64,000 bases of DNA. Origin: Marsupella aquatica. Lineage: Eukaryota; Plantae; Marchantiophyta. The stretch spans positions 2,803,801-2,867,800 of the forward strand of contig OZ316891.1 in assembly GCA_973895155.1 (NCBI GenBank). The letters run 5' to 3'. The notes beneath the pieces were generated by a model that did no database searches, was not told the origin of the DNA, and worked only from the letters and a program-made list of their open reading frames with translations. This document shows positions 28,674 through 64,000 of the stretch, piece after piece. Positions within the stretch are counted from its first letter, which is position 1, and each line of letters begins with the position of its first letter. The position numbers and the translations under genes were made by a program.

Positions 28674-29438
<765 letters not shown>

Positions 29439-34171: not shown

Positions 34172-36611
34172 GAGATGGTGCCCCAATTATTGTAAAACAT
34201 AAATGGCCGTATCTCGATCGTTTGACCTCCGCTTGTGCATCATTTACGAAGCCGTGATCAGGAAGAGCAGGGTTACCCAAGTATTTTTCAGAAGTGAATT
34301 CTGAGAAAATTATATTTTTGACAATTGTTAGGGGCCCCTCTTTTTGCAGCGGACGGTAGTGGCAATCAGGAGGATGGTGATCGATGAACATGGTTGTTCA
34401 TATCTTAGGGATGGTCTGTGACAAATTGACAGACCCAATGCCTTTGGACACCCATACCTCAAGGTGGAAACAATAACATGCTATCCAAGTGAAAGGTGAC
34501 ATTTTTTGTTTTAATTAGGTGATTATTCCAAAAAGAGAGTTAAAGTATCAAAATCATAAAATTTTAAAATTTTAAAGTTTTTATAAGGCCCTTTAAGCAA
34601 ATTTAAGTTAGTATAAGCTCAAATGGGTAAGGATACCATTGGAAGACGTCAAGGCTACTCTGGTTTTCACATATTGGACGTCCATGGCGGCCGGCAGTAG
34701 GGCGCGAGCTTCGACCCTCAGTGCTCACTTGTTAGACCACCATTCGAGCTCATTTCAATTGCTATAGGAGCGCAACTGCCTAGAGAATGTTCACCCCGAT
34801 TCTGAACTGCCATTGATGAGACGTTGAGGAGTATTGGGTCATCGATGCTCTCTGATTTCTTAGAATTGAAGAAATTGCAATTTCAAGAGCTTCACTTGAT
34901 TAAAGCTCCTTCATTTCTATCTCTTTTCAGTTCATTCCTTCTCCCATAGTAACGCAGCTACCTTAGATCCCTGAGATTTCATTCTTGAGCCTCCATGCTT
35001 AACCATTTTTAGGAGGAGAGCTCTAGAGCCTTCTCAGATTTTCTGACACTAGAAGAAACCGGCCCATTCTGAGACCCTGCCTTAAGTGACTCTAATGAGA
35101 CCTTGCAAAATTTGTGACTCCTAGGTTTTGGGTGTCATTATAGTTACAAGTTGTGGACTGAGTTTTGGAGAATTCTTGGGAAGTCATTTCTATAACTATT
35201 GGGGAAGTTGCAACTATAACTAAGTTCAGCCAACAAGAATGAAGTTGTATAAGTGACTCCCTCTACAATAGAGCGTTATATATGTAAGAGAGCCTTAGGG
35301 TTTAACACCACAATCTAACCACATTTGACCCCGCCCAACACATACCATTTAGGATATATCCTAATTTTCTTAGTTGTCAATGGGACTAAAGGAGATGCCC
35401 TCGGGATATTGTGTGAGTACGCAACTCTACAAGGTAAGTAAAGGTCCTTGGTCAATGTCAATGCTAACAGATCTCAAATATATACTCTACATTAGAGTAG
35501 ACTGAATTACAACATATGTATGCCACAAGTTTACAAGTGTTACAACATAACAAAATAATCCCAACTAGCTAGGGTCCCACAATGGCATGCATGTAATATT
35601 AATTGGACTCATTTTTGTGTCTAAATGGGTACATTTGAAGTTATCTCCTTGGTTATCTCTAACTCTCACATATGCAAGGGCAGGTTATTTTTACTTATTG
35701 CACGCCATGCCATGCATACATACCGTCATGTACCCCCTCCACACATTGTTCCATCTAGATTCCTTTAATTAAAGGTTCAAAATCACCAAGAACTGGGAAT
35801 GCAGCTGGAACCTCCATGTACTTGGCATGTCTACATGTTATAATTAGACATATCTGATAATGGCACCCCACACACTATGCTCATGGAATGAGCATAAGAA
35901 CTTGTGACAGTCCTTACCTTAATTAATCAAGCAAGGATCTGACGGTCGTAAACTTAATCAAAGGATGATCTGACGGTTGAAAACAAATATGGGCACATTA
36001 AACCAGGTTTAGGGTTTAATGGATTCCTTCACGCCAACTCCCATTGCGCCTTGGATTCCTTTGGATTTGCGGACGAGGAGCTGATCGCGCATTCTTTGCG
36101 AGGGAAAAAAGGGGGCAGTTTGTCGATCACTAAGGCTGAAGCTGCATTGACAAATTGCAATCCCGACTGCAATGGGAGTAGTAGGAGGCAAGAAGAGCGA
36201 GTTTAGGGTGTTGCATAGACAAAACAGAATGTGAGTCGTAGGCAACATTCAGCCATTGTATGTGTTTAGCATTGATCATAGGCACTGTGGGAGGCACTGC
36301 AGGAGGCGTTTGCCACTGCGCAAGGCACTGTAGGAGGCACTTGTTCCTTCAAGCTGGGAGAGTCAATTTGACGTTCAGCTGCAACCTGGGATCGAGAACC
36401 AGGAGCTTCTCATTGCGGTTTGGTGTGCATTTGGACTGTTCTTGCAAAGTGGGACTCCAGGCCTGGAGACATTGCATTGATCGCCTTTGGATGTACATTG
36501 CAGTCCGACTAGGAGGCTTTCAAGTGGAGCTGGGTTGGAAGTGAGTTGAAGATTGAGTTGCCATCACATTGCAATAGCGGGGGATTGTTGCTCAGCTTCA
36601 CATACTGCTAC

Positions 36612-42564: not shown

Positions 42565-43245
42565 ATGGCACGGCCTAAAATTCAAGCCAAAAAGCGTGTG
42601 ACAGAGGTGAGAAACACAGGTGTACTTGGGGCAGATGCTACTAACTTCTCTGCAAGTCAGATTTTCCAGAAGGCAGCTCATTGTTGTGCCATTTGTGACG
42701 ATGGTGGGGGCCTGGTCATTTGTGAGGGCCCTTGCATGAGGCATTTCCACCTCAACCCGGAGTCTGACCTTGCTGCAGAAAACAACTGTCCAGGGGTGGG
42801 CCTCCCGTCAACACACCAGGGAGACTGGATGTGCACTGATTGTTTGGAGAAGCAGGCTAAGTGTGCACAGTGTGGGAAGTTGGGGTCCTATGAGGGCTCT
42901 GTTGATGCTGCAGCAAATGTTAGGAAATGTCCAGACCGTTTTTGTGTGAGATTTTTCTGTTTTGAGTGTTTGCCTGCTCATGCCACAGCTTGCCCACTTC
43001 ATAGGTGCAAGGCATGTGGTGAGCATGATGATGACTACTGGACTGACATAGTCCACTGTGCTAGGTGTCCCACTATGTGGCACTATCATTGCCTGAAAGA
43101 TCATCAAGCAGAGGGTTATGCTTGTGACAGAGAAATCTATGATCACTCTGCACATGGTGTTGATCGATGGATATTTTATTGTCATCGCCATGCCATTGAT
43201 CCTACCTCGCGCACTCCTGTGAGAGATCACATATCTTGGCTGTGA
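42565..43245 (+). CDS. Stand-alone EDM2-like triple-PHD finger protein (226 aa), CACTA cargo
   Basis: Intact ORF with CAICDDGG.LVICEGPCMRHFH, WMCTDC...AKCAQCGKLGS, CPLHRCKAC, CARCP..WHYHCL and FYCHRHAIDP...TPVRDH. This is colinear with the EDM2 PHD region as I recall it (CAICDNGG..CEGSCLRSFH...LGSS...CPLHKC...CRRCPKSYH...YC..HEID...TPVRDH). Confidence 0.85.
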   Translation: MARPKIQAKKRVTEVRNTGVLGADATNFSASQIFQKAAHCCAICDDGGGLVICEGPCMRHFHLNPESDLAAENNCPGVGLPSTHQGDWMCTDCLEKQAKCAQCGKLGSYEGSVDAAANVRKCPDRFCVRFFCFECLPAHATACPLHRCKACGEHDDDYWTDIVHCARCPTMWHYHCLKDHQAEGYACDREIYDHSAHGVDRWIFYCHRHAIDPTSRTPVRDHISWL

Positions 43246-43837
43246 AGCTGAACATTGTACATGCACAGTGCACCTGATGTGGATGTACTATTTTTTGAGA
43301 TTGCAGAGATTCCAATTTTGAAAAGGAGTTGGGTAGGCGAGTTTATATAGGCAGCACTTATCTTGTGCTCTGGCGTCAGTGGCTGGGTACATGCCTATAC
43401 AAACTTATCCTTACAAGCCTTCTTGGAAGTATTTAGGCTGAGTGGTCATTTTCATAAACACTTTCATCACACTGCTAAATTAAAACAGGACTTCTAAATT
43501 GTAAGCGTATAAATTATCAGGCATGCAATTAATCAAATTGCCCTATAAGTTTGTCATTGAATGTATCCTCCTTTACAACAAAATATGTATGTGCCATGAC
43601 AAGTTGGTTGCACTTCATTTCACCACGGATATGGATTTTGTAGTATATATTCAAACAATGTCCTGCATCCGTGCAGGTGCCTAGTACGTATTGTTCACAT
43701 ATCCCTTGTACCTATCAAAATCGGACCTGAGCACCAGTGGGCCAGATCAACTCAAAAAGCAGGAATTTTGTTGTCCTTGTATTGTCAGGTGAACCCATTC
43801 TTCCAAAATTCACTGTCATCACGTAGGGTGTGTGTAC

Positions 43838-44710
43838 ATGGAGCCTGGTAAACGTAGAAAGTGTGACCACCCAGCAGTGTTTACAGGGGTCAGAGCGATT
43901 TTGGTCCATGGCCAGCATGGGTTGACCAAAGTGCATTGGCCAACTGTACAGAAACGATTCTCTGAGCTCCATGGCACTGTAGTTCAAGACATCACTCCAG
44001 AGACTACACATGTTGTTGCAGGGACATGGCTATCAGTGATAAAGAAGTGGTCATGGTCCTACATGAATTCTGCAATTACTAAGCAAGGCCTAAAAGTAGT
44101 TGAGGCCTCTTGGATCACAGATTCCATAGCACATAAGATTGTACAGGATACTGAGCAATATGAGTTGTGGGAGGATGAAGAAGCTACTGCATCAGCTTGG
44201 GCTGAACAAGAAGTCTGGGAAGCAAAGGCACGGCTTGCTGATCTCCAATATGGACCTGTACTCAACAAAGGACAGAGCTCTACAAGGCTGAAGAGTATGT
44301 TGGCTGAGGAGACGAAGCAACCAACCCCCATTCTGAAAGGGCTGAGCATGGTATTTGTGGAGGCGGGAATTGGAGAGGTTAAGTGCAAAGTGTACAAGTC
44401 CACAGTGCTTGACCTAGGTGGGACAGTGGAGGAGAATATAACAGAGGACACCACTCATGTCATTACTAAGTCATATCCCAAAGCCTGCCGCAAGTTTGGG
44501 AAGGGAGACATTCGCTTTTATGTCATGTCCCATAATGTGTTTGTGGTTTCATATGCTTGGCTTGTGGAATCAGTAGCAGCTGGGAAGCGTCAAAACCCAA
44601 TGGACTATGATCTTTTTGAGGCCTGGCCACGGAAGGGTCAGGATCCTTACAGAGAGGACTATGAGACAACAAGTGAGGAATGGGTCATTAGCGATTCTGA
44701 ATCAGAGTGA
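43838..44710 (+). CDS. Tandem BRCT-domain protein (290 aa), CACTA cargo
   Basis: Two BRCT repeats: FTGVRAILV...LHGTV...TTHVV...VVEASWITDSI...YEL and LKGLSMVFVE.G...LGGTVEE...TTHVI...KFGK...VVSYAWLVESV.AG...YDL, followed by an acidic tail. Confidence 0.85.
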   Translation: MEPGKRRKCDHPAVFTGVRAILVHGQHGLTKVHWPTVQKRFSELHGTVVQDITPETTHVVAGTWLSVIKKWSWSYMNSAITKQGLKVVEASWITDSIAHKIVQDTEQYELWEDEEATASAWAEQEVWEAKARLADLQYGPVLNKGQSSTRLKSMLAEETKQPTPILKGLSMVFVEAGIGEVKCKVYKSTVLDLGGTVEENITEDTTHVITKSYPKACRKFGKGDIRFYVMSHNVFVVSYAWLVESVAAGKRQNPMDYDLFEAWPRKGQDPYREDYETTSEEWVISDSESE

Positions 44711-45143
44711 GGAGTAGTAGCATCAGTTTGGACACAAGTTTTTTTGTATAAATCAGATCATTGAAATAAATGTGATCTTTGAACTAATGTACCTTGTTAT
44801 GGTTGGTGGCAGTTGGGCTTATTTTACTGTTGGCGGATTGTTGTTTCCTGCTGCCTGGGGGTGTCACTGTAAACGTACATGCAGAGGCGGTACATTTGAG
44901 GACAGCGGAGGAGGTGGTGACACCCTCCAACATTTAGAAATTTTGTGTCATTCACTTGACAATAGGTACACTACTTGCGAACCTGTTTTTTTCTTTTGGG
45001 GTGGTTTAGGGTTTGTGAGAATTTAGTACACGTTATGTTAACTCTTTTGGCAGATACAGTCAGGGATATATGGAACACAAATACCACCATTAGGCATCCT
45101 TGTTCACTGCTGTCCATGACTGCAGAGCTCCCAGCCTGTTACA

Positions 45144-48100
45144 ATGCACCCTGGTCACCACCCTCCCCAGACCCAGCCCAGGGCACAGGCACTGCCTTTG
45201 CATCATCCCACAAGGATATCACGCCATGATAATAAGCTTTGGCAGCGTGAAAGGTTACGAACCAGACTTTCAGGAGCCAGTAGGATGAGATGTCCTTGTG
45301 CAATCTGCCAAGGATCCCGTACCAGGGGTCTGAATGAGGTTTGGCGGCATATCGCGGTTCATGGAAGAGATCCACGACATCGAGTTTGGAATGATCCTGC
45401 AGAGGAAGATTCTTCCGACGAGGAGTGGAGGTTAGAATTTGATGCTGCCAATGCTGCAAGACGGGCAAGTAAGGTTCTGCCTGGTGCATTTGAAAATGTT
45501 GTAGCTGGTCTCTGTGGGTTGTCAGCTCTCCAACGGGATGGTGCTCAGGCAGCACCACGTGATGAAGGAATTCATGTGGAAGAGATGGTGAGAGACATCT
45601 TCCAAGACTTGGATGCATTTCATGATGGGCTGGACAATGAAGAGGATACGGTTGCAAATGCAAGTGTGCCCCCTGTCAAAGAGCCTCTTGATGAGTTTGA
45701 GATAGGGCAGGAAACCCCTGGGCATGATGGGATGTTTGGCTCTCCCCTGCAAATACAGGAAGGCAGGAAGTCTTTGTACCCCGGTAGCAAATGTTCTAAA
45801 CTGGGATTTGTCATCATGTTCCTGAACATTTGCGGCAACCACAATGTCCCCAACGTTTTGGTTTCTGAGTTGTTGGCATTCTTGCGAACAACTGTGCTAC
45901 CAGATGGTAATATTTTGCCCAAGAACATGTACGAGGCAAAAAGATGCATATCTAATCTTGGATTGAACTATGATTCGATCCATGCCTGTCCTGATGGGCA
46001 TGTTCTTTTCAGAAAGGAGTATAAAGAATCGTTGACATGCCCTAAGTGTGGGAAGCACAGGTATCGGAACTCAGGAAAGTCTATGGTTCCCGCCAAGGTA
46101 CTTCGTCATTTTCCACTCATTCCCAGACTTCAGCGGATGTTCAGAAGCCGTGCCATCTCGGAGATGATGACTTGGGCAACTGACAAGAAAAGTGATGATG
46201 GGCTACAACGACATGCTGCAGATTCAAGGCAATGGAAACTCATAGATGAGATGTATCCCGAATTTGCTGCTGAGCCGAGGAATGTCAGACTTGGGCTGTC
46301 ATTGGATGGGGTAAACCCATTTGGAGACAAGAACAACAAATTTTCATGCTGGCCTGTAACTATTTTGAATTATAACCTTCCTCCTTGGATGACTACAAAG
46401 CGATTTTTTGTTCTGATGGTCCTACTGATACCAGGGCCAGACAGTGCTGTATCTGCCAACATAGATGTGTTTCTGGCTCCCCTAGTGGAGGAATTGAGAA
46501 ATCTTTGGGAGGAAGGAGTTCTCACATATGATGTCCTACAGAGGCTTGGGAGGTTAAACCCATTCATCCTTAGAGCCATTGTCATTCTGACTATAGCTGA
46601 CTACCCAGCCCATGGGATGATATCAGGCCAAACAACAAAAGGATATTGTGCTTGTACTATCTGTGGGCGCAATGTCACCAGTGAGTACTCCAGAGCCCTG
46701 CAGAAAGTGATATACATGGGCCATCGTCGTTTTCTAAAGACAGATCACCCTTACAGAGAAAGACAGGCACTGATTGCACACTTTGGCAATGAGATTGAGC
46801 AACGTGGACCCCCGGCACGAGTGACCAAAGAGGAGATCAGGCAGTGGGGAGCACTAAGGGATGACTATATCAAACGAGGGGGCAGGGAAGATGGAGTGAG
46901 TGATCCAATAAAGCGATATGGTGTAAAAAGACTGAGCATATTGGACTTGGAGCTCAAGTACTGGAGGGTAAGCCTCTTGGAGTTGATGCTAATTGGGATA
47001 CATGTTTTGGTTCAGAGCATGTGCATTCATTTCGAAGAGAGAGACTAAACTTGAGGCATTTCCTGACGCTTTTGCATTGCAACGATGCAGGAGTTTGAGC
47101 CAAGCAAACATAACATTGATGTTATGCACATTGAAAAGAATATTTGTGAGAGTCTACTCAGATTCTTGTGTGGAGAGAAAGACACTGGTTCAGTGAGATT
47201 GGATCTTGAACAGAGGGGAATGAAACCCCATCTTTGGTTGAGGCCACATGCCCACAGAGCTGATGTGCTCTTGAAGTACCAAGCGCCCTATGTTCTGACA
47301 GACACAGAGTGGGAACTATTTGTGCAGAGGTTGAGTTCTTTGAAGGTTCCTTCAAACTATGGCAGTGCTTTCAAGAAGCATATCATGACTAGAAAGCTTG
47401 GTAGTATGAAAAGCCATGACTACCATATGTTGATGCAACAGGTGTTGCCTTTATGCCTGAGGGGCCTGTTGCAGAAGCCTGTTCGTACTGTGATCATGCG
47501 ACTCAGTGATGTGTTTCGTCGTATTTGTGTGAAGGTTTGGGATGAAACACACTTCCCACAACTGACAGAAGATGTCGCTCAGGTGCTGTGTGACCTGGAG
47601 ATTTATTTTCCTCCCGCATTTTTTGATGTCATGACCCACCTACTTGTCCATGTTGTGGAAGAGCTACACCAATTTGGGCCTGTGAGTGCTCGTTGGTTGT
47701 ACCCTTTGGAACGGTACATGAAGCTACTCAAAGGTCACGTGAGAACATATTACAAACCTGAAGCAAGCATGGCTAAAGGTTACATCAAGGATGAGACTCT
47801 GGGATTTCTGACCGAATACATAGCACAATATGAGCATGTGAAGACCAGGGTGTGGAATTCTGATGAGGAGGAAGGGGTGGTAGGTGAAGTACTGGAAGGG
47901 GCTGCAACCACAAAGAACCTGACCATATCTATGAGAGACTTGGCACATGACTTTGTATTGCACAACACTGTGGTGATGGAACCCTGGATACAGTGAGTGC
48001 ATACATGTGCTATAATCCAGTTCATGAGCTTAAATGTTGTGTTCGTGTGGTTTTCTCCTTCAGCCTGTTCATGTTTACCCAAGCTAATGCTGTGTGGTTG

Positions 48101-48875
48101 TTCGTTCAGGGAGTATGAGTCATTGAAGGCGGCCCATCCCACTGCAGGAACAACTTTTCCAGGTTTCATGGAGTGGATCAGAGTGGCAATTAGAGAGCAT
48201 CACGAGACCCACCCAGACATGGATGCAGATGTTTACCTACTGTCTAATGCCCCTAGCCTGAAAGTGAAGACTTACAAACGGATGAGAGCATATGGGAATC
48301 ACTTCCGAGTGAAGGATGGTGACAGTGCCTACAGGGTGACGAATGACTGCGGGCTCATCACTGTATTTGAGCAACAGAGCCACAATCACAACAGGGCCTG
48401 GATGGAGATGGGATATGTGGGAGAATTAGTTGACATATGGGCTCTGGACTATGGGGCGGTGTCCAGTCCTGTGATTCTTATGAAAGGTTCATGGGTGCGG
48501 CAGGATTGGCTTGCTAACAGGGCTACCATGAAGAGAGACAACGACGGTTTCTTGCTGGCCAATTTCAGAGGGAAATTGCCCGAATGGTCTGAGCCATTTG
48601 TGTTTCCTAGTCAGGTGGAGCAAGCTTTCTTCCTGGATGTGGAAGACTCCCCAGGTTGGCGTGTAGTGTGTCATAAACAGGCCAGGCAACGCCGGATGGA
48701 AGGATCAAACCTTGAGTTTCATTTACACTCTCATAGTGCCTTTGATCGTCGGCGTTCAGACCAAGTGCCTGTAGTTCATGATAGCGGGGACTTCATTCCT
48801 GTGACAAGGGTAGATGCATTTGCTGAAGGAGGCGAATTCAGAGATGCAGATGCCAACAGTGTGCCTGTGCCATGA
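45144..48875 (+). CDS. CACTA TnpD/TNP2-type DDE transposase (~1160 aa, 3 exons), apparently intact
   Basis: Exons 45144-46967, 47091-47992 and 48110-48875 are phase-compatible. Motifs: N-terminal CPCAIC..HIAVHG, IHACP..CPKCG, LRHFPLIPRLQRMF, LSLDGVNPF, IADYPAHG, HNIDVMHIEKN, MKSHDYH, FPPAFFDVMTHL, YPLERY, EPFVFPSQVEQAFF. The exact start codon is uncertain. Confidence 0.95.
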
Positions 48876-49031
48876 GTAATGTAAATTGTTTGCATAGACA
48901 TTAGTGAGGGGAAGGATGTGTAATAAAGTAATTCTGAAGCAACACAGATGTATGGATGGATGCCTGGTGATTGTGGTTGCATTGTGTTATACGGGGTGAC
49001 CATAGATGACATGTTTTTGTGGTCCAGTAGG

Positions 49032-52000
49032 ATGGAACAGAGTGACACAGAGATGTGTGAGTATGAAAGGAAAGCTATGGAACAACGAGCATACGTGAAA
49101 GCCAAAATCGCAGAACTGGATCTGGAAAAGGATGTGGCTGAATTGTAAGGGAACGATTCTCAACTACACCCCTCCGCTGAGTTTGTGTGACATGAATAGT
49201 TCAATGTGGCACTGAAATTGTGACTGTATTCTCATATTGGAATGTCGCAGAGCCACAACATTTTCAAAGAAACAAAAGGAGTACGCAAGAAGGGTGACCA
49301 GCACTATCTCTGGGCCTGTGCGTCGGAGTGACAGGTTGAGCAAGAAGGTCGTACCTACAATGGCAGAATGTGGAGATGACATTGATGCTGCACAGGTGGG
49401 TGCAGACACTAGACAAGAAGATGCAGATGATGAGTATTTTCCAGAGGAAATGGATGAGGATGGGGGTTATGAAGATGAATACATTGCAGAGCAGCCCCAA
49501 AAGAAACATGTAAGTAGTTTTCCCAACAAGGTTTTGAGTTAAAAACTCTTGTTTAGAGGTTTCATATGTTCAGTACTACACATATGTACCTTGCTTAGTT
49601 CCTGACATTGTAGTTGGTGATGTGATGCAGCGTCCTGCCAGTTCTGTTTTGCCTTCGAAGCCTGTGCATGCACCATACCAGCAGGGGGGGCTGACCTCTG
49701 ATCAAGGTTGGCGAGGTGGTAGTAGTGGTAGATCCCAGGCTGGTGCCCAATACTATGGCAGGGGGCAAGCTCTAGGTTATGCCCGTGGTAGAGGCAGAGC
49801 AGGTCCAAACCCACAATCTCGTGGGTATGGACGTCCACCTCAACCGTGGGGATGTGAGTATATATCTATATGCCAGTTCTTTGTGAAGGCATGGCACTCC
49901 TGAATTTCAGACTGCATATCAATTTTTGACATTGTTTGGGATGTATTGGATTCAGACAACATGAAATTCTGTCCACCTGCCATTGCATGCAGATTCTGCC
50001 CAACCTGATTGGGCAAATGCTAGTAATGATCAGTTCCAATGTCCACAAGGACAGACATGGGTTGAACCAGGTTGGGAGGATGGTGGTGGGTCGTGGAATG
50101 AACAAGGTTGGGAAGGTGGTGAAGGTAATTGGCAGGGATATCAAAATACAGTACCTACAAACGCTGGAAGAGGAGCAGGTAATGTCTGATCTTGTCAGCA
50201 ATGGAAGAACTCATTATATGTGGAGTCCATTCACGTGGGGGGGACTCTGCACATGTATAATGATAGAAAATGTATGTGTGCAGGTTGGACAGTTGAACCA
50301 TCGACTCAAGTATTCACTAATGCCCCTATGCAGATGCAGCACGGAAGGGGGACAGGTATGTCGGTGAATGTTCAGTTGTTTTCCTACAGTTTGTACTTAG
50401 TTTTCAGTACATATGTTTGCACACACATACCTAGAAAGTGACATCATCCGGCCCCTGTACTAGGCTGGACAGGTGGTCCAGGGTCGCAACAATTTTAGAG
50501 TGCAGTCCCTGCACAGGCATCTACAGGCAGAGCTACAGGTATGTATGTTTGAAGAATTTTTCTTGAAGTGAAGCATTGAATGTTGCCGTCATCCATTCTG
50601 CTATATGTAGTTCTCAAGCATGAATGGCATTGTATTTTCCCAGGTGGCTTCAGAACCCCAGGTAGGGTGAATGAAGGGGTGGCCAATACAACGCCCAGTA
50701 CTACCGAGAGCAGTGCACGAGGGGAGGTGACAAAGAAAGGGAACGTAAAGTTGAATGAGAGACAATGGGTGGATGCTGAGTGTCCTCGCAAGAACCGATG
50801 GCATGCTGATTTGAAAGCTGAAGTATTGCGTTGGTTAGATGTGAGTGTTATTAATTTTAAAAAACAGCATCCAAAAGATTGGAAGACTGTATGTGAAAAT
50901 GTTGCTGCCAAATGGAATTATGTGGGCAGTGATGATGGCGTGGACATAGGTTGCCTAGAGAGTACAGCAGGTAAAATTATCAAGCAAGAGAGGTGGAGAA
51001 TGCATAAGGCTTGGAAGGAAGGTGGGGAGAAGCCAGATATGCCTCCACCAGCCAGTTGTGATGATAAAGTGTGGGCAAGGTTAGTAGCTTATTTTGTAAC
51101 AGATGCTTCAAAAAAGAAGAGTTCACAGATGACCGAGGCCAGGTTGAGTGTTCAGAACCCTAATCTGACAGGAAGGACCGGCACTGCACCGACAGCTAAA
51201 CGTTTGGTAAGAATGAATGGCCTAGCTATGTAATTTATGCTACACTATGTACTATTTTTTAGTGTAAACCCATACATGTAAACTTTGTTTTTTAGTGTAC
51301 GTTCCCTGAATATTGATCGATAACTTGTGTTTGCCATGCATGTGCAGAAAGCCCAATTGGGGCAAAGCCCTTCAAAAGAAGAGTTGAGGGCTGAAATTGT
51401 GAACACCTGGGCTCAAGAGGGTGCATCTGAATCCTCCAAGCATGTAAGTTATATGAGTTCTGATTGGTAATTGAATGACCTGCGTTGAATTTCAGGTGTA
51501 CACTGTATATAACATTGATTGTGCATATATTGCCCAACATTTCATATGGAGTGATTGAACCTATACCCCTGTGTCATGTAGGGAGGTGGATCTTCACTTA
51601 CAGAGATAAGTGGTCGTTTGAAGGCTGTCGAAACATGTCTTCCAGAGATCAATGAACGTTTGAATTCATTGACTGACTTGTTCCATGTGAACTTCAAGAC
51701 ATTAATGGAAGCTGTTGTGTCGGTGAGAGATAAAATTGATTCCAATTCTGCAGGAGTTCCACCATCACCACTTGAGGTGGCAAAGTTGATGCACTCTTCT
51801 GGCATGCCAACGACATGTAGGCTTGAAGGTAAGGCCTTTACAACTGTGTGGGATATGATTATTAAATGTATAGTTTGAATTGACATTGTTTGTTGAATGT
51901 GTTATTTTCAGTAACATATATTGTGGTTGTTGTGTCCATAGAGAATAAGACAGGTGCTACAGAGAAGAAGTATGAGAACCTGGCAAATACTCGCTGTAAT

Positions 52001-52738
52001 TTAGAGGCAACAAAGTTGCAGTCTGTACAAGCAACTTGTTTGACAGAGGGCAGTCAACCATGTTTGGATGAGGATGACATTGGCAAGGGAGTGGATGATA
52101 TCAATGTTGGGGCAAATGAGGATATCAGCAAGCATGACAATGATACCATTGAGCCAGATTCATGCTATGTAGATCTTGACTCCATTGCAGAGATAAATGA
52201 TTTGCAGAATGTATCATTCTCAATGACAGGTGTGCCTCTTGTTGAGATAAATCCAACCAAAGAGCTAGTTGGTATGACACTCCCAGGTGATGAACCTGCT
52301 ACTGTGACAGTCCTAACAGAGGAACCTACTGAGCCTAGCTTCACTACTGTGAAGAGAGGAAGCATGCGCACACGAAGCAAGTCTGCTGGTGGGAGCAGAG
52401 TCACGTCAAAGGTTTCATACAAACCTCCAAGAACAGTGCTGGCAGAAAGATCTAAGGTGGAAGTGGGGAAAGCACCTAATGCTGAGGGACAAAGTGGCTT
52501 GTTAGTTGTTGATGAGAGTGGAACACGAGTAGGATTTGCCAGAGTGCAGGTTGGTTCCACAACGTTCCATGGCAAGAGGATTCCCCCAGGTTATTCAGTA
52601 GTGTTAGTCACATTACTAGTGAAACCTAAAGCTGTCCTTCCCATTCCAAACACAAATGATGATCCTCCTCAAAAGACACTTGGAGATGCTGCAGGTTCTT
52701 TGGTATTATGGCCAAGCAAGTTCATAGAGGATCCATAA
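49032..52738 (+). CDS. CACTA TnpA/TNP1-like protein (Ptta/En/Spm-type domain), 10 exons, ~876 aa, with one in-frame stop in exon 6
   Basis: Exons 49032-49144, 49251-49509, 49631-49853, 49993-50178, 50284-50355, 50464-50538, 50644-51206, 51348-51443, 51582-51828 and 51942-52738 are all phase-compatible. Motifs: EYERK...L.L start, W..LV.YF.T...KKKS...EAR..V.NP..TGR, and C-terminal HGKRIPPGY..V...LP.P..DD....LGDA.G..VLWP. TAG at 50496-50498. Confidence 0.8.
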
Positions 52739-53593
52739 CAATGTCATGCCATTATTTGTTTGTAGTGTGAGTCATGTTATGTAGATTTTAGATGTCAAGA
52801 AGCAGTACAAGAATCATGTCCTCTTGGAGATTCATAGTATCATGCATGTGCTTTCAGTTATCTCATCCTACAGTCATCAATTATGAGTTCCTGTTTTGTC
52901 TAAATTACATTGATCACATTGTAAACTATTCCATTGGAATTCAAATGATCTTCATTTTTTAGCAAGATTGTGATTGTGTTTAATTCTTATGAATGTTTTA
53001 TGTAGGATCTGCTTATATGATGCTTTGTTTCATGTGGATGTCATTCATGCTATGTTCATTTCTTGTATTCAATGTGTTATATTTCTAAAGTTAGAACATC
53101 AGGTTTCTATGTATTGTAATGTCGAGTGCTCTCTCTTCTTATGAACTGTCCCTCTGTGTTCATTAGTCATGGTTATAACTTGCATGTGAACCTTATTAGT
53201 TATAAACATGAGTATATAGAGTCCCAAATGGTTCTGTTGTGTGACGCGGGCCAGGGTCTCCATTGGTCTCTCCTGTGACACTAAATAGTCACACGCTAGT
53301 CGTTGTTGAATGCGGGTAAGTCATGTATGTGACTTACGATGTGACTCGCTGAAGTCATATTGCAGTCACGTCGAAACAAGGCTAGACTCCACAATAAAGT
53401 CACAGATCAGTCACAAATGGGTATCAAGCAAGTTGCAAAGCCCAGTATCAATAGTGACTTCCATTTTTTGGTCTCAACTTTTGCAACTCCAAGGGTCACA
53501 GCGTGGGTCAAGTCACGTTGAGTCACAATGAAGTCACATGAGCCAAAATGAGTCATATATTGCGGTCTCAGTTCACCTCGGATTCTTCTAGTG

Positions 53594-54074
53594 CTCGTAG
53601 GGGTCTGCAACTGAGGGTCAATCGTATGGAGGTGGCAATACAAAAACCACCTATCAACCCCGTGTGCAGAGTGGGAATAAATTTGGCGGTCACATGCATA
53701 CCCTTCTACCTCAAGGGCTAGTAAACACTCATGGTGCCAGGCTGTGGGACATCTGGGACAATGGACCATGTCTATCCAGTAGTCATCATCAGGCTCCCCA
53801 CAAGCAGGACAAATATGTAGTGGGCAAAGGGAGTTATCATGGGGCAGCCATGTCAAACAAAAAAAACGAACACAAAACCTGTCAGGACATTTCCACAGCT
53901 CTGGTTGATCCCCCCCAACAGTGCCATTTGTGCCACATTGAGCACACGTGCTGATATTAGTGGCACAATCAAAGCAAGTCCAAGCACCCCGATCGTCCCC
54001 CCGGACCCCAGGGCATGCATTTTGTGGTGCATAAGTGGACCAGGAATTGACATGGAATTGTCTCAGACAGGGAC
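53594..54074 (-). pseudogene. Second copy of the EDM2-like PHD cargo gene, frameshifted and truncated
   Basis: Reads PCLRQFHVN...NACPGV...WTCFDC...TCAQCG, then a frameshift, then KCPDRFCVRFFC...CPLHICPACGEPDDDYWIDMVHCPRCPTAWHHECL...EGYACDRQIYSHSAHGVDRWFLYCHLHTIDP..QTP. It stops at the TIR of element A. Confidence 0.9.
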
Positions 54075-54174
54075 ATAAAATCCAATCAAATATCCCAAAT
54101 AACCCCTAGCCTATCAACCCAACCCAGCCTTAACATCCTATCCACCACATCCTGTAAATTGGTTTGTCTTGTCA

Positions 54175-55545
54175 CACAGACCGAGAGAGAGCAAGGAGAG
54201 AATTTAGCAAGGAGAAAATTCTGCTCAGTGTTGAAGTAGTCCAACCGAAGCTGGTATAGACGTGCCACAAGACCCAGGACTCTAAGATTGGACACTCGAT
54301 TGCTAATCCTAAAAGATTGTGTAGAATAAAAGTGGACAATTGTTGGGCTAGCATTTTCATAGTTGAATAAAGGAATTCACAAGTCAGAGAACCCAGTACT
54401 TCCGCACAACACTTCCGCACACTAGAATACTAGTGTATGACATTAGAGCAATTGAAGCTCCACAGTCGAGGCAGAATGAAAGTGCCGACACTATACTATG
54501 ATCCAGTCTACACTTCCATAGTGAAATCCTGGCTCGACCCTGGCCCCGACCTGAGATTGCTATAGTGATGGGCATGCATAAGAGAGGGAGAGATTTCTGT
54601 ACATACTTGAGTATTGAGAGAGAGAGAATTCTGCAGCAAAGAAGATGATGGTGAGCAAAGACAAACAAACAGAGTACTGACAAAGTGGAGAGAGACACAC
54701 GGACGGAGAGAGAGCAAGGAGAGAATTAAGCAAGGAGAAAATTCTGCTCAGTGTTGAAGTAGTCAAACCAAAGCTGGTACAGACGTGCGAGAAGACCCAG
54801 GACTCTAAGATTGGACACTCGATTGCTAATCCTGAAAGATTGTGTGGAATAAAAGTGGACAATTGTTGGGCTAGCATTTTCACAGTTGAATAAAGGAATT
54901 CACAAGTCAAAGAACCCAGTAGAACTTAGTTGTAGAGTAGCATATTGAAGCAAACATGCGAGTCTACGAGCAGCAAATTAAAATATTGGCAATGGCAACA
55001 CAAACGCCCGACCCTGAGACCACCAGTGAAGACAAAGCAATGACAATGCAGAGGGCTCTGAGTGATTGCAGACCTCAGGAGTTGAGAAACCCTGGAATGA
55101 TTTCTTTGTGCCTAGCTTGGCAAAAGAGAAAGCTCTCGAACGGGTGGAAAATTGATCTGTAAGTGCCACAGACAGAGTGTGGCTCATCAATTCTGTGGCT
55201 CATCCGTTGTCCATGGAGGAGTACATTATAGAGTATCACATTTGACTAATGTCCTATACATGGAATACAGGACCGTTGAGTTGAAATCGCAGCTCAGCAA
55301 AGGCAAAGAAAAACCCCCCGCACCCCACCTTAGTTCTGCACAACACTTCCGCACACTAGAATACTAGTGTATAAGGATGGTGGGGATTCAAGCTTCACAG
55401 CCAAAGTAGAATAAAAGTGCCGACAATATACTTTGATCTACATTTCCATAGTGAAATCCAAGTTTGACCCCGGCCCCGACCTCAGATTGCTATAGTGATG
55501 GGCGTGCATAAGAGAGGGAGAGATTTTGTACGTGCTTGAGATTTT
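54175..55545. repeat. Mosaic direct duplications inside CACTA B
   Basis: A ~225 bp block at 54175-54399 is repeated at ~54697-54921. A ~200 bp block beginning CACAACACTTCCGCACACTAGAATACTAGTG at ~54405 is repeated at ~55339. Confidence 0.85.
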
Positions 55546-56494
55546 GTCTGCAGGAGAGAGGACAATGAAGAGCGGAGACGATGGACGAGCGAGACCGAGA
55601 GAGAGGGCGAGAGAGAGCGAGGAGAGAATTGAGCAAGAGAGGAAACCCTGTAGAACTCAGGGAACCCAGTAGAACTTAGCCCTACCGTAGCATATCAAAG
55701 AGAAAGAAAGCAAGGCAATAGCAGCAATCAGACCCTACCGAGAGACGGAGATGACCAGCACCGCAGCTCAACTTTGTAGAGGTGTTGGAGACTACGATGA
55801 CCACAGCTTAACACGAGCTTTGCCAAAGTCAACAAAGTAGCAACCCGCTCCTCCTGCTAAGCCGCGCTGCACCCTAGCTGATTCACAAAGACTACGGCAC
55901 CTTAGCTTCACGGATTGAGGTGGATTCAACAGCCATAGCGCAACGTGATAGACCTCAACTCCAATGCTACACAAGGCTTCGCGCAAGGCAAAGAGTAAGT
56001 CTAGGGCGCATTTGCGCATTGTCACTTTCTACAGGGAGCAAGCATTGTGATAGCAGACATGCAAAGCTCCATTCCAATGCTGCGCATGGCAAAGTCAGAG
56101 GTAAGTACTTACAAAGCAGATGGCGGAAGACGGACCCCCACACCACAAACTTATGCTCCGACCCTAAAATAACTGACCGCAATGCCCCCGCAATGCCTTC
56201 GGGGAGCACTCGCTCTCGCACTTAGCACTCGACTGAAAATCGCTGCCGTTGCGCTTCAAGTGTGGTCGTAAACACTTCCGCCTTCCTAAAAGCTCTAGTA
56301 AGAGTGGTAGCGAGAAGAAATCCCGACACACTCCTCATTTGCTCCTCCTCCCTCCTTGATCAATCGACTATCAACTATCGATAGTCACCTCATTCGCTCC
56401 TCCTCCCCTCCCCTCCCCTCGCTAAACCCTCTCTGCGGACGAAGACCTTAAACTTTCGCTCCCGCGCACAAGGGTGGAGAGTACTAATGTACTC

Positions 56495-56652
56495 AGCCAG
56501 TGACATGTAAGGGAGCCAGTTACATGCAAGGGGCTCATATAAAGGAGCCAATGACATGTAAGGGGCTGATGTAAAGGAGCCAATGACATGTAAGGGAGCC
56601 AGTGACATGCAAGGGGCTCATGTAAAGGAGCCAGTGACATGTAAGGGGCTCA
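56495..56652. repeat. Minisatellite built from GAGCCA(G/A)TGACATG(T/C)AAGG units
   Basis: Six copies of AGCCARTKACATGYAAGGG, interspersed with GCTCATGTAAAGG-like spacers. Confidence 0.9.
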
Positions 56653-56927
56653 CCTAATACCTCTACTATTTGAGACTTTCTCACATTAAAAGCTTGAATG
56701 TTTGGCAATTGGTGATTAGCACTCACTCACATAAGTACTTAGCACTAAGACATTTGGCTTGGATAGTGGACCTGCCATTTTCCTTATGAAGGAGTCGCAA
56801 CAAATGAGTGGATAGTTTGTAGAAGTGATACTTAAGATATATGTAGTGATAACTCCCTAAACTTCCATAACCTTGTCACATTAGTCAATAGTGGTTTGGT
56901 CAAAAATAGGGGGTACTTCTACTAGTG

Positions 56928-57559
56928 CATGATTCACATTCAAGGTAGCACCAGATGATGATGCTATCTAGGCTTGACCCATTTCTTTTATGCATCATCT
57001 GACAGCAAAGAACTTACCACCTCATCGTATGAAATAGACTTCAGGTCTCTACACAAGAGAACTTGCTTCAAACCCTGATAAGATGGGGGTAAGGATTTGA
57101 GAAGAAGCAAGGCCTTGTCCTCTTCTTCAACGCCCTTACCGAGATTAGATAAATCAATAGCTAGGCTGTCAAATTCATCCAAGTGACCGTGGAGCTTGTT
57201 CCTCTTTTGAGCCTAAGGCTCATCGAGAGAGACCTCTTGTACAATCGATCTGATGCATCTGACTTCTCCCTTAGGGCTTTGAATAGAGATGCACAATCCG
57301 CGTAGTTATCCAACTTCTTGATGATATATATGCGGCTTTAGATAAAGCATCATCCAATTCACTACAATTACTTATTCTTGCCTCCACCTCTTGAGTGGAA
57401 TCTCCTCCTCATCATCGTATACATCTCTCGTGTAGAGAGAAGATGATCTAGGCCCATAGCGCAAAGAACTTCTTTCACTTGCTTCTCCCAGAGCAAGTAG
57501 TCCGTACGCCCATCATACTTTTCCACCTCAAACTTGACACCTCCAAACTTGGATGTCAT
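56928..57559 (-). mobile_element. Ty1/Copia gag N-terminal fragment
   Basis: Reads KFEVEKYDGRTDYLLWEKQVKEVL and DEFDSLAIDLSNLG..VEEEDKALLLLKSLPPSYQGLKQVLL. It is the same family as the gag at 62435-62820 and is broken by the CACTA B terminus. Confidence 0.85.
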
Positions 57560-58199
57560 TTGTTTGTCCTTCACAATCCCCTCTACTTGTTGCATCGGTG
57601 ATCATACTGGTGTCACGTGCGCTTACTTCTACTCCTCTCTCTCCTCCTCAAACCGTTGTGATGATCCTCGTGCTTCACGATCCACTTCTTCAAAAATCTC
57701 ATCTGAATCACTCATGTGAGAATGCAAGAAAAAATGACGTTTTTTCAACTTTAAAAAAAAACTCAAAAATTATCACCATCGCGTAGCCCACAAGCCTAGC
57801 CCAATGCTGAAAACCAAAATCAAAACAGAACTCCGACGTAAAACTTATTCACTTTTTGGTCGGGGTGGGTAAAACTTAAAATTCTCCCCCGTTTTGACCA
57901 CCTCAGGGAATAACCAAAATATGAACGAGTACTCAACGTTGGAAACATAATTCAATTGGTGCACCGCATGGCCAACTCCGATGGCTACCTCCTTGCCAAA
58001 GATGAACAAAAAAGTTATCATTCGGAGGACGGAATCTTTGATGGACGGCCAAAAACACGCTCTCTGTTTTTGGGGGAATATTCTTGCATAGAGCAACAGG
58101 GCTCACAAGGGGCCGTTCCCTCTGTCCAAGTGGTTAAAGTAGAGGGCGGTAGGTCCCAAAATATGGCTACCAATAAAAAACTAGGGAAAACTACTCAAG

Positions 58200-58523
58200 G
58201 TCTAGGGTTATGACATGTAACCATAGTTAGACTAACCATAGTCGGAGACGTGATTAGGTTAACTAGGATGCACCCTATATGCCAAGCGGTGTTTGCTTGG
58301 ATAAGTGGAACTTAGGCTCATTGTTATAGAGCCACTTGAGAGATGAGGAGAGCTTACACTGTGAAAACTTGGTATGGCGAACGGACTTAGAGTTCTGTAA
58401 AGCTCTCTTGTGTGTTCCCGTGGACGTAGCCTCGAAGAGGTGAATCACATATCTCTTGTGTCAACTACTTGCGCGTTGGATGTGTCATGTGCTTACCGTT
58501 GCCATCATCGTCTATGCTTAACA
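58200..58523 (+). repeat. 5'-eroded Copia LTR (probably solo), homologous to 59629-59972 but inverted
   Basis: Shares AACCATAGTTAG.CTAAC, GTGGAACTTAGGCTCATTGTTA, CTTGGTATGGC, GTAAAGCTCT, CGTGGAC.TAG and the terminal GTCTATGCTTAACA with the reverse complement of 59629-59972. No PBS follows it. Confidence 0.8.
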
Positions 58524-59160
58524 AATGCACAACAAAATTGATGTATACATGTTATTCAAATCAAAATACAAAATAATTGTATTCATTAAAACTGGAATTA
58601 TAAAGGATATAGGGAAATTTGGATATTTAAAAACATAGTTTTAGACATGAAAATTGTGAATTTGGAAGATGAAAAATGAAAATTCAAGCATCATTAAATG
58701 TAAATTTGTGGACAAAAAATGAAATTTTGGGGACAATAAAATATTAAATTGGATTATATTAGAAAACATTTGGGTGATAAAAGTGTTCATTTGGTTGGAA
58801 AATAGATAGAATCTAGTAATAACATATAAACTTGGATATCATTATCTTCAAAACATTTAGCTTGGGTAAGATATCTAACTAAGCAACAATGCAATGGAAT
58901 AACTATACTGTCTAGACAAAGTTAACTAGGATGATATCCAACCTACTAGAAGGAATGATATGGCATATTTTCAAGAATTAAAATGTACTAAGACAAATAA
59001 AATATTAATTATAAGAAAGTCCATTCAATAACTTTGAGAGATCATAGAGTACTAATTTGATTACAGTCTTGTTCTCTCACTTTAGTCAAATGCATGGAAA
59101 TCAACTCGACCCTCTTAATCACAAGTCATTGAGTGGAGACTTGTGGCCTACTCTATCAAT

Positions 59161-59628
59161 CTACTCATCAATACCGTCTATGTAAATTTTGAGAGTTTAC
59201 AAAACATTCTTGGGAATTGTCAAACTTCTATCCATAATATTATGTTCTTTAGCACATGACTTAAACCCATACATTACAGAATTTGCAAACTACCAACTTT
59301 GAGCAACATTGTCAAACCCAGGGATCCAACTCCCAAGTCGTAGTGGTCTGAAAGCAATGTTCATATCGAACATCATCCTTTGCATCATGCTTACCATGTT
59401 TAGGCCTCCACCATTGTACTTGGAACATAGGAGCATTTCTCTCAGGGATGCTCTCAACAGACATTGAAGAAGACCCTTCAATATGTTGCAAATCTGTTGA
59501 TGAAACTTCATGGTTTGGATTCACAACACCCAAAGCTCGAACCAACCAAAAATGCCCTTTGCCATTTTCCTGTTCCCATTCTTTCTCTGGACGTAAAAAA
59601 ACAAAGTGACCTTTTTGAATATCTTGTA
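59161..59628 (-). pseudogene. Decayed C-terminal fragment of an uncharacterised, probably DNA-transposon-encoded protein
   Basis: Reads IQKGHFVFLRP...HFWLVRA...FQVQWWRP...YEHCF...WELDP, then a frameshift, then GFDNVAQSW*..SVMYGF...LTIPK. It is cut by the Copia LTR at 59629. The resemblance to tails of DUF7869-type transposon proteins is from memory only. Confidence 0.4.
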
Positions 59629-62600
59629 TGTTAAGCATAGACGACATTCGCAATGGCAAGCCCATGAACCATCCAACGCACAATAGTCGACACATAGAGA
59701 TACGTGGTTCACATCCACATGAGACTATGTCCACGAGAACACACCAGAGCTTTACTGCACTCTAGGCCGACCGGCCATACCAAGCATCCACAGCACAAGC
59801 TCTCCCTATCTCTCAACTAGCTCCGTAACAATGAGCCTAAGTTCCACCAGGGTCTGGCATCAGCCCTGGCTATATGCACAACAGCACTACCGCTAACATT
59901 AGCTAAGTCCTAACCAAAGTTAGACTAACTATGGTTAGCTCATGAGTCACAAGACTAGAGCAATATCTAACAAACTCCCCCTTGACTCTTGTCTTGGGGA
60001 CTGAACTAAATGCTACCATATGGAATCCTCAGCAGGAAGTTCTAGACAATCACCAAACCAGGTCTCCCCCTAAAAACCATAAGGGTTAACTAAGGGTTAA
60101 CTAGAACTAAGCCAAACAGGAATGAGTAATCCATATACAAATAGTCACACATTGCTAAATAACTCTACTTGCACTACAACTGCAAAACCTATAAAGTAGC
60201 ACGGTGTCTTGAGAAACTCTCCAAAGGATACACTTTGGTAAAGGCATCAACGGGATTGAGTTTTCCATCAATCTTGACTAGCTCAAAAATTTTAAAATTT
60301 TTATCAGACACTGCTTGCCTAATAAAATGATACCTGATATCAATGTGCTTCATCCTGATATCCATCACTTGGTTAGCAGCCAAGTGAAGAGCACTCTGAC
60401 CCATCTCCGCGATCAATTTGTCCAACCAAATTGCCAAATTGGGGAATACTTAGCTATCGGTGAAAAAACCAGACCAAAAAACACAACAAGCTGACACAAG
60501 ATCCAAATTGTGGAATACTTAGCCACCGGTGAAAAAACCTCATTATAATCAACTCCTTTCTCTTGAGTGAATCCCTTGGCAACAAGCCTTGCCTTGTAGA
60601 TCTTATCTCCACCCTCTGAAGGACTGTCCTTTAACTTGTAAATCCACTTGCTGTCCATCACTTGCTGACCTCTTGGAAGCTCCACGAGCTCCTATGTCTT
60701 GTTGTCACTCAAAGATTGCAACTCCCTCTGCATTGTTGCATTCCGCTCATGCTATACTCTGAAGCACAAGCCTCACTGTACGAAGAAGGCTCTCCTTCTT
60801 CCAAGATCAAAGCCATATCATCTTCATTAGGTACAATATCAATATCATCTAACTTAGATGAGTCTACCCATTGACCATACCTGGTAGGAGCTCTAGTAGA
60901 ATGACTGGAAGTTCTTCTAGTAGATGACTCAGGCTGATCTGCGCTGCTGCTGGCTGAATTTGAGGTACCCCAGCAACAATCTGCTCCTTTTGTTCCATCA
61001 CAGGAACCAGCTCCAAGCCCGGAGCTTCTGCATCTCTCCTGTCATGAACAACATCATGACTAATCTCCCCTTCAACCCGGTCCGGGATGGGAGATTTCCC
61101 CTTGTCAATATGGGAGTCCTGAGAACTCTCCCCCTCTTTTGATGATCTGGATTCATTAAAGGACATATCTCTACTGACCATTAGTTTACAGGTTACTGGA
61201 TCCCATAACCTATAACCCTTCACAGCTTTCTGATAGCCAAGGAAAATGCACTTTTTTGACTTGGACTCCAACTTGGATCAAAGCTGGGAAGGTGTAAGCA
61301 CATAAGCATCACATCCAAAAATCCTCAGATGTGAGTAATCCATTGGACGCACGTACCTCATTTCAAATGGCGTCTTGAATCTAATAGAACTGGATGGAGA
61401 AAAATTTACCAAATAAGCTGTAGTGCTGACAGCTTCAACCCAAAACTCATGTGGTAAATATGATTGACTTAACATACTCCTCAAGCGGTCCAATAGTGTT
61501 CGATTGAGTCTCTCAGAAACACCATTCTGCTGAGGAATATAACTTGTTGTGAGATGGCGGGTAATCCCCTGCTCCTTACAATACATTCCAAATTCCTTGG
61601 AACTGTATTCACCGCCGTTATTTGATCAAAGATATCTCACCTTATTACTAGTTTGATTCTCAACTTGGGCTTTCCACTCTTTAAAGGTGGCAAAAACATC
61701 AGACTTACTATGTAGAAAGTATATCCACACATACCTTGACTATTCGTCTATGAACGTGACATAGTATAACCGTCCAGAATGTGAGGGAGTAGGGGCTGGA
61801 CCCCACACATCACTATGTACGTACTCAAGTACCTCATTGCTGGTTTGAGTTCCAACTCTAAAGGGTTTCCTATGCTGCTTCCCAAGCACACAATGCTCAC
61901 AGAATTCCAACTTACAAGATTGCAAATTAGAAAGTAATCCTTTCTTCTGAAGAATAACCAAACCTTTTTCACTCATGTGGCCCAAACGGAAGTGTCGTAG
62001 GCCGTCTCCTCATGAGACAAGGTTACATTGGCTTTATCACAGACTACATTGCCCTCCAAAACGTATAGATTATTATGTCTCTTTCCCTTCAATACAACTT
62101 TAGTACCAGTTGAAACCTGAAGGACACCATTAGTAGAACTCCACTGATGGCCATTTGCTTCTAAAACTCCAAGTGAAATGAGATTTTCCATCATGCTGAG
62201 AATATGTCTCACATTCCTCAACGTTCTTACAGCACCATCAAACATCTAAAATCTTACAGATCCAAGTCCAACAACTTGACATGGGATTCCATTTCCCATC
62301 AACACTGACCCGTTGGAAACCATGTAAGAACTGAAAAAATCTCTCCTAGAGCAAATGTGAAAAGTACATGCACTATCTAGAATCTAGTCATCACTACCTG
62401 GATTTGACACTACGTTGAGAGCATAACCTTGGCATCACAATATGTCATCATCATCGAGTAAATCTACCTCATGCGAGCTTGATGCTGCATTTGCTGATGC
62501 AATAGGGTTTTTTACTCGACAATCCCTTTTCATGTGGCTAGGCTTGCCACAATTCCAACATGCAAGAGGCTTCCTTTCTTGCAATTTTGCTCTAGATTTA

Positions 62601-62820
62601 GATGTCCTCCGTGATGTAGATCTAAACCTGTTCTGCCCATTTGAGCGCTGCACTGCTCTCCCACGGTTCACGTTCAGCGTAGTGCCAGAAGAAGATGCTG
62701 TCTGTGATTGACCCAACTTCTTCTGAGCATTATCAAACAATAAAGAGCTCACCACCTCATTATACAAATGGACTTCAGATTTCTGTATAAGAGCACCTGT
62801 TTCAAGCCCTGGTATGACGG
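59629..62820 (-). mobile_element. Decayed Ty1/Copia LTR retrotransposon (gag-PR-INT-RT-RH plus 3' LTR), 5'-truncated
   Basis: Zinc knuckle CWNCGKPSHMKRDC, protease ILDSACTFH, HMSEKGL..CEHC, integrase VHSDVWGPA / NGGEY / PQQNGVSER, RT YKARLVAKGFTQEKGVDYNEVFSPV, RNase H KHIDIRYHFIR. PPT AAGGGGGAG lies next to the TG...CA LTR at 59972-59629. Many stops and frameshifts; most of RT is deleted. Confidence 0.93.
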
Positions 62821-62948
62821 CGATGTCATAATTTTCTCTTAAGTTATAAAAAATTGTTTGTTTTAATATGCTATAGATTATATAAGTAATTTAGTAGTTA
62901 GATTATTAAGTTTAGATTTTATTAAAACTCTTTAGCTATATTAACGGA

Positions 62949-63417: not shown

Positions 63418-64000
63418 CACTAGTAGAAACCGGGGCAATTTAGACCATACCTTATAGGACTAAGCCCACTAAGTCCTTTTTCCATACTTGAAACGACTCG
63501 CACCCATTGCACCGGTTTTGTTGAAGACTACAAAAGACTATTAGTGTTTTATGGTTCACTAAAAGACTATGAGAAGTAACCTTGCTACTTTGTGAACGGT
63601 GAATAGTCTAGCACATCATGGGTAATGTTCACTTATGTTGAGGAGGGGTAATTCTGTAAAGAGGGAGATAGCAAGGGGCATAACTCAATAAATGGCCTTA
63701 TTTGTGACAAAAAAGGTTTTGGAGTGAGGTTCATGGAGGGTGGACTACGGAGGGATCGATTACTAACTCCATCAATAAAAGGCCGAGATGCACAAAGGTA
63801 GATTTGTACCGGTCTCAAGGGGGTGTGGGTTTAGGGTTAGGGGGTTGTCCAGGCGAAGAACACTCGATTGAAATAGTGACGCAATGGTTTAGGGTAAAGG
63901 AACATGTTTAGGGACCCTAACTTGTTTGCTGCCTTGGGAGGATCTTGAGAGCCTGAGCTTGCAAGCGGCATGCACTCTAAAAATGGCCCTTGGCATTGCA
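63418..64000 (+). mobile_element. Terminus of a third CACTA element (C), running out of the window
   Basis: CACTAGTAGAAACCGG at 63418 has one mismatch to the left TIR of element A (CACTAGAAGAAACCGG). AGACTA/GGACTA/AGTC subterminal-type motifs follow it. Confidence 0.75.

Follow-up and report, generated by a model that had tools for sequence, protein, structure and literature searches.

The segment at positions 53594-54072 of the window (the whole stretch of 64,000 nucleotides analyzed here) is best read as a dead fragment of an old lineage of PHD-finger genes, which we call B-type, and the low dN/dS between this fragment and an intact relative in the same window probably reflects selection on a working gene family carried by transposons. 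The intact gene, copy A, lies inside a CACTA transposon, element A, and the fragment, copy B, lies immediately beyond the right terminus of that element. The features of the region are collected in Table 1.

Table 1. Features of the window around copies A and B, in positional order
Feature	Positions	Strand	Basis or remark
Left terminus of element A, CACTAGAAGAAACCGG	35047..35062	(+)	terminus search; GTGACT motifs just inside; flank TGA
Copy A, intact single-exon ORF, 226 aa, three PHD-like zinc fingers	42565..43245	(+)	MARPK...RDHISWL, then stop
BRCT-domain ORF, element A	43793..44707	(+)	Pfam BRCT 2.6e-13; weak BRCA1 BRCT match
TnpD-type transposase ORFs, element A	45120..48872	(+)	Pfam Transposase_21, DUF4218, weak DUF4216
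TnpA-like ORF, weak, element A	50580..51230	(+)	Transposase_24 below Pfam cut-off
Right terminus of element A, CACTAGAAGAATCCGA	53578..53593	(-)	terminus search; adjoins copy B directly
Copy B, fragment of a B-type PHD gene	53594..54072	(-)	479 bases, both ends cut, one open frame
Non-coding stretch, direct and tandem repeats; possibly 5' region of element B remnant	54073..56916	(-)	
Fourth CACTA-type terminus, CACTAGTAGAA, candidate end of element B	56917..56927	(-)	pattern search; aligns with the other three
Terminus of a further like element, CACTAGTAGAAACCGG	63418..63433	(+)	pattern search; element runs out of the window

An intact PHD gene and a diverged fragment of its relative

A sequence-only reading of this DNA had proposed that copy B is a second, diverged copy of an EDM2-like gene, and the protein comparison bears this out: BLASTP aligns the copies with 92 of 164 residues identical (56%, E 1e-65), pairing residues 12-170 of the copy B ORF (54072-53596) with residues 56-219 of copy A. 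On the minus strand, a single open frame (54105-53407, 232 codons) takes in all of the copy B homology, and tblastx recovers three collinear pieces, 42730-43218 versus 54072-53599, in the one frame that starts from 54105. At the nucleotide level, a repeat finder reported a 301-nt inverted repeat without gaps, at 70% (42923-43223 / 53594-53894), and identity over the 159 aligned codons is 303 of 477, with two alignment gaps, both in frame, of 2 and 3 codons. No nucleotide homology was found upstream of about 54085.

Differences between the copies fall on first, second, and third codon positions 51, 41, and 82 times, respectively, and different codons are used at 45 of the 92 identical residues. 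All eight of the synonymous codon pairs listed in the sequence-only reading are present (GCT/GCA, AGA/CGC, ATC/ATT, CAT/CAC twice, GGT/GGG, CGA/AGG, and TGT/TGC), and the retention of zinc ligands that it described is seen in 17 of the 18 Cys and 8 of the 14 His of copy A. The frameshift that it assigned to copy B is absent, since a single open frame holds all 159 aligned codons; the truncation is real but affects both ends. Against a profile HMM of the short-protein family described below, copy A scores 341 bits over positions 2-215, and the copy B homology runs from 54072 (HMM position 47 of 215) to 53594 (position 209). The breakpoint at 54072/54073 takes away the first 46 HMM positions, and the terminus of element A at 53593/53594 cuts the gene seven codons short of the usual end of the family. 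A search of the window in six frames found none of the missing copy B exons.

Short PHD proteins and EDM2-like modules

A word-index search returned five stand-alone relatives of 217-245 aa, at 82, 75, 53, 37, and 38% identity; four end in DHISWL or DHISWI, and P0005 extends past DHISWF. Longer relatives did not appear in the word-index search and were found by HMMER search. A phmmer search of 1.84 billion representatives gave 249 matches at E ≤ 0.001, and among the best 150 of these the short proteins stand on top, at 128-253 bits, and the long proteins follow with no more than 101 bits, their match lying near residues 220-430. Two of the five long clusters examined (P0035 and P0058) are named ENHANCED DOWNY MILDEW 2, and the other three are called hypothetical or "Zinc finger PHD-type"; our label "EDM2-like" for the long group is based on the two cluster names together with the common position of the match. 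A search with the core of copy B returned no relative closer than P0004 (53%). A metagenome scan yielded one locus, L001, which encodes a stand-alone member ending in DHISWL and shows no transposon feature in its 1867 bases, and a search of a protein atlas returned PHD/NSD-type clusters only.

The short stand-alone triple-PHD family comprises P0003-P0008, P0013, P0158, and L001; the full-length proteins have 217-245 aa and mostly end in DHISW. Copy A has the length, the Cys pattern, and the C-terminal DHISW of this family and falls in its clade. Copy B shares the clade and, with the one Cys missing, the Cys pattern, and in the window it lacks both ends.

For phylogenetic analysis, the HMM was built from nine short proteins, and the module was cut out of every protein whose match began at HMM position 50 or before and reached at least position 195. 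By this rule 133 of 162 proteins passed, and dropping six near-duplicate cluster members left 127 rows. The columns were limited to the span of copy B; the trees are unrooted, and P0006 forms a long branch. In a quick tree of all 127 rows, the 10 short rows, both window copies included, are split from the rest by a branch of length 0.98 with an SH-aLRT value of 99. A more careful tree of 46 rows, made up of the 10 short rows and 36 of the 117 long rows picked to span the deep groups, separates short proteins from EDM2-like modules at 100/99. Within the short group, copy A joins P0003 and P0004 (99/97), copy B joins P0005 (98/89), and these five come together at 98/90. The split between A and B is thus older than that of copy A from P0003/P0004.

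Both copies fall in one clade of short proteins, outside the EDM2-like clade, which excludes two recent captures from EDM2 proper. The three motifs that the sequence-only reading had listed as unfamiliar from host EDM2, here in the forms DDDYW, HSAHG, and CPD.FC.RF[FY]C, occur in none of the 117 EDM2-like modules; of the 10 short proteins, 2, 4, and 4, respectively, have them.

Element A, a candidate element B, and their junctions

Element A spans 35047-53593 (18,547 bases), with termini CACTAGAAGAA. CACTA-type terminal inverted repeats are present at both ends, and subterminal AGTCAC/GTGACT motifs cluster at 35000-35500 and 53000-53593. On the plus strand the order is the PHD ORF, the BRCT ORF, the Transposase_21/DUF4218/DUF4216 ORFs, and the weak Transposase_24 ORF. 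The transposase matches PF02992 at 1.8e-70 and PF13960 at 4.8e-28, with PF13952 below the cut-off; the PF03004 (Transposase_24) match, at 22.3 bits, falls below the cut-off of 28.7. The placement of a PHD gene beside a BRCT gene may echo the architecture of plant BRCA1/BARD1, and another, weaker BRCT-like stretch covers residues 51-114 of the BRCT ORF. No 3-bp target-site duplication is seen at element A, where TGA (35044-35046) faces CTC (53594-53596); from these unmatched triplets, the two flanks were probably never contiguous.

The pattern CACTAGNAGAA has four matches in the window against 0.16 expected: the two ends of element A, 63418 (+), and 56927 (-). All four termini also align further inward. 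The terminus at 56927 faces copy B, and the copy B gene reads away from it, just as the copy A gene reads away from the left terminus of element A; the distance from gene to terminus is 2855 bases for copy B and 7518 bases for copy A. Neither a second terminus nor a transposase for an element B remnant (53594-56927) was found within the window, and blastn and tblastx detected no similarity to element A beyond the PHD gene in 53594-64000. In the window, the support for a CACTA element B is this one terminus at 56927, and we infer that copy B lay in an element ending there. A composite element spanning 35047-56927 was considered and rejected, as TGA at one end differs from CAT at the other.

Several other features of the neighborhood were recorded. 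The DNA separating copy B from the 56927 terminus contains two pairs of direct repeats, 54173-54398/54696-54921 (226 bases, 95%) and 54397-54611/55331-55540 (216 bases, 83%), a tandem array of ~30-base units at 56495-56650, and a 16-base palindrome, CACTAGAATACTAGTG, at 54420 and 55354; many length-variant joints are seen in public sequencing runs across the repeats at 54173-55540 and 56495-56650. Between the termini at 56927 and 63418 lie Copia-type pieces (56933-57200, 60867-61625 on the minus strand, and 62438-62890 on the minus strand), with gag-like stretches that are 74% alike and with integrase and SH3_retrovirus domains. Host-like genes in the window include a Noc2 homologue at 13819-15861 (+) with an uninterrupted frame of 681 codons (PF03715, 7e-105), a MatE exon at 6517-7065 (-), and a ribosomal S5/S7 exon at 29058-29453 (-).

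Five public runs with three organism codes, none recorded as RNA, contain 0.62-0.83 of the sampled words of the PHD-BRCT stretch of element A. The contigs of all four runs chosen from these cover element A throughout, PHD gene included (41000-57000 compared). Summed word depth, which is a measure of words and not of copy number, drops more than tenfold at 53816. In three of the runs, here X1, X2, and X3, at least 9, 5, and 8 contigs, respectively, leave 53593 into unlike flanks; the right terminus of element A therefore sits at many sites. Contigs of the same runs continue leftward from 53594 (for 255 letters in X1) with one common sequence which, translated by eye, extends the copy B frame into RDHLTWL, the C-terminal motif of the family. 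Contigs of X1 (107 letters) and X2 likewise continue rightward at 54072, and the letters behind that point, again read by eye, give DGGDLVMCDG before PCLRQFH, the first half of finger 1 that the window copy lacks. Because B-type sequence continues past both cuts, B-type genes that are whole at both ends exist, in several copies: X1 has at least two distinct B-type contigs and X3 as many as 15 at one place, and A-type genes are likewise present as several distinct contigs. A mixed contig of X3 links 42735 with 54066, the two parts lying on opposite strands. A B-type contig in X1 and X2 skips 75 bases (25 codons, in frame) at 53668-53744 and is another damaged B-type copy located elsewhere. The continuations past 53594 and before 54073 were not found elsewhere in the window, which means that the left flank of element A is not the other half of copy B.

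These contigs bear on whether the family belongs to transposons at all. The short PHD proteins could instead be a host family from which two CACTA lineages captured different paralogs, so that the low dN/dS was earned in hosts. The grouping of A with P0003/P0004 and of B with P0005, which are different unnamed database proteins, would suit such an origin, as would the relatives at 37-44% identity, which are stand-alone ORFs on short contigs without a visible transposon feature. Yet the contigs of all four runs cover element A in full, its PHD gene included, the B-type gene is present in several distinct contigs per run, and both copies read away from their nearest CACTA terminus. We consider a host family unlikely, although it is the strongest of the alternatives to a transposon-borne one.

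An assembly join through repeats would be a different explanation of why fragment B lies beside the terminus of element A, and its position, its truncation points, and the missing duplication would then all be artifacts. Element A is highly repeated in the public runs, no 3-bp duplication matches, and the points where the X1-X3 contigs part from the window are precisely 53593/53594 and 54072/54073. In all three runs, different letters adjoin the flank that lies right of 54073, and among the contigs listed none bridges either junction as in the window, so that the local arrangement is without independent support. Against a mis-join, no shared repeat that could have caused it is visible at either junction, the best run has only 0.83 of the sampled words and may not include the source genome, and the window copy carries private substitutions, as expected of a separate locus. 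An artifact of this kind appears improbable, more so than a host origin of the family.

If the junctions are genuine, element A may have inserted into, or become joined to, an older element B inside its PHD gene, with the remainder of element B then lost. Recombination between two copies of element A, or aberrant transposition with deletion of adjacent DNA, could have produced this arrangement; either route fits the lack of a target-site duplication and the left flank of element A, which does not continue element B. A review (PMC13317346) describes comparable events in the formation of Pack-CACTA elements; in the capture route proposed there, elements lie close together and excision is aberrant, with deletions at the termini.

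Selection, decay, and predicted function

Four estimates of omega between copies A and B are available: 0.17 by NG86 (dN 0.35, dS 2.04), 0.30 by LWL85 (dN 0.33, dS 1.13), 0.135 by the Biopython ML method (dN 0.32, dS 2.36), and 0.128 by a GY94 F3x4 pairwise fit. Since dS is saturated (1.1-2.4), the values are imprecise and omega is a rough figure, but there is no doubt about its direction; in the GY94 fit, omega=1 is rejected (2dlnL 58.8, p 1.7e-14). With the conserved Cys/His codons removed, NG86 still gives 0.446/1.637 = 0.27. The protein-level constraint proposed from the codon differences is therefore upheld by dN/dS values far from 1. A pairwise omega averages over the whole path between the copies and does not indicate the compartment in which selection acted; the low value likely reflects purifying selection on working copies, fragment B itself excepted. 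That copy B is a neutral relic whose synonymous excess came from chance or composition is hardly credible and was already ruled out by the test of omega=1: dS is indeed saturated and the letter composition of the window copy was flagged as unlike the rest of the alignment, but third-position differences outnumber those at second positions by 82 to 41, and a given frame remained stop-free, as the 159-codon frame does, in just 2 of 20,000 shuffles of the 479 bases of copy B.

The window copy is itself under no constraint and is a decaying fragment. At least 17 variant places lie within copy B among the contigs listed, and at 6 of these 17 the window copy differs from nearly all other contigs. 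Five of the six private differences are nonsynonymous (window residue first: V>A, E>Q, W>C, W>R, and T>K), and at all five the other contigs carry the residue of copy A, which identifies the window state as derived; one of the five derived changes is the loss of a zinc-ligand Cys. The probability of at least five nonsynonymous changes in six is 0.014 under omega 0.128 and 0.61 under omega 1. The other 11 listed variants among B-type copies, 8 nonsynonymous and 3 synonymous, look neutral, as for transposon copies drifting after insertion, and give no sign of constraint.

The protein encoded by copy A resembles known chromatin readers to different degrees. Pfam gives sub-threshold matches of NSD-type PHD families to all three fingers, and PHD families only; phmmer gives weak matches to AIRE PHD1 and, over query residues 32-174, to NSD2. 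The AF2 model of copy A, with a mean pLDDT of 70.6, matches the PZP module of JADE1/BRPF1 (Foldseek E about 1e-4) and the PHD5-C5HCH module of NSD1-3 (target TM about 0.6), histone readers of solved structure, but with a sequence identity of 18-22% and a low whole-model TM of 0.19-0.29. The N-terminus is basic (MARPKIQAKKR) and would suit a nuclear protein.

The closest resemblance is to EDM2 of Arabidopsis and its plant orthologues, whose module of three PHD-like fingers aligns with copy A residues 39-224 at ~35-38% identity (E 1e-16 to 1e-20); the two share the TPxRDH module end and the same NSD-type PHD families in Pfam. EDM2 has about 1200-1400 aa, whereas the copy A protein stops right after the module. 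EDM2 is a host reader of H3K9me2 at transposons inside genes and sets transcript ends. According to one report (PMC7529245), it has further domains (ELP and PGR), binds to chromatin that carries H3K9me2, and represses proximal polyadenylation, with ASI1/IBM2 and EDM3/AIPP1 as the partners that it recruits; another report (PMC3632883) describes that it alters transposon silencing states. Pfam found neither ELP (methyltransferase-like) nor any other non-PHD domain in the 226-aa ORF.

The 226-aa protein may act in the nucleus, reading histone H3 tails with the same specificity as the PHD module of EDM2 while lacking the other domains of EDM2. It would bind the H3K9me2-marked chromatin of its own element and there compete with, or replace, host EDM2, favoring transcription of the element. 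With low confidence, we regard such a decoy or stand-in role on the chromatin of the element as the most likely function. A wider proposal can be put forward quite tentatively: that this CACTA family gene is a cut-down, PHD-only EDM2 acting as a decoy or stand-in against silencing or premature termination, and that two ancient versions of it were kept by selection.

In the literature searched, no CACTA element was reported to carry an EDM2-like gene, and neither "PHD" nor "EDM2" appears in the 2026 review (PMC13317346). Transposon-borne genes of host origin under selection are a known kind of finding; as far as this literature goes, an EDM2-module gene in CACTA elements, in two old lineages, is new. 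Extra transposon genes that selection maintains offer an uncommon view of how mobile elements cope with host silencing. A transposon-borne EDM2-module gene in two old lineages would lead to a testable idea, namely, that the element mimics the host heterochromatin reader or competes for it; if this is true, two selected versions in different element lineages would speak for a long-running conflict over one host pathway. For annotation, a short plant ORF labeled "EDM2-like" or "NSD-like PHD" can turn out to be a gene of a transposon or the remains of one.

Two known systems invite comparison. VANC is the main known plant example of a selected extra transposon gene; the subject of Fu et al. 2013 and Sasaki et al., it is reportedly an additional gene of an autonomous DNA transposon, kept by selection, that counters host silencing. 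The same role may apply to copy A, but VANC is neither a PHD protein nor a derivative of EDM2. Pack-CACTA elements are likewise CACTA elements with host-related coding sequence, and the capture route proposed for them resembles the arrangement of element A and the element B remnant without a target-site duplication. Pack-type elements, however, are non-autonomous and carry gene fragments, whereas element A looks autonomous and the ORF within it is complete and conserved, with a paralog in a second lineage.
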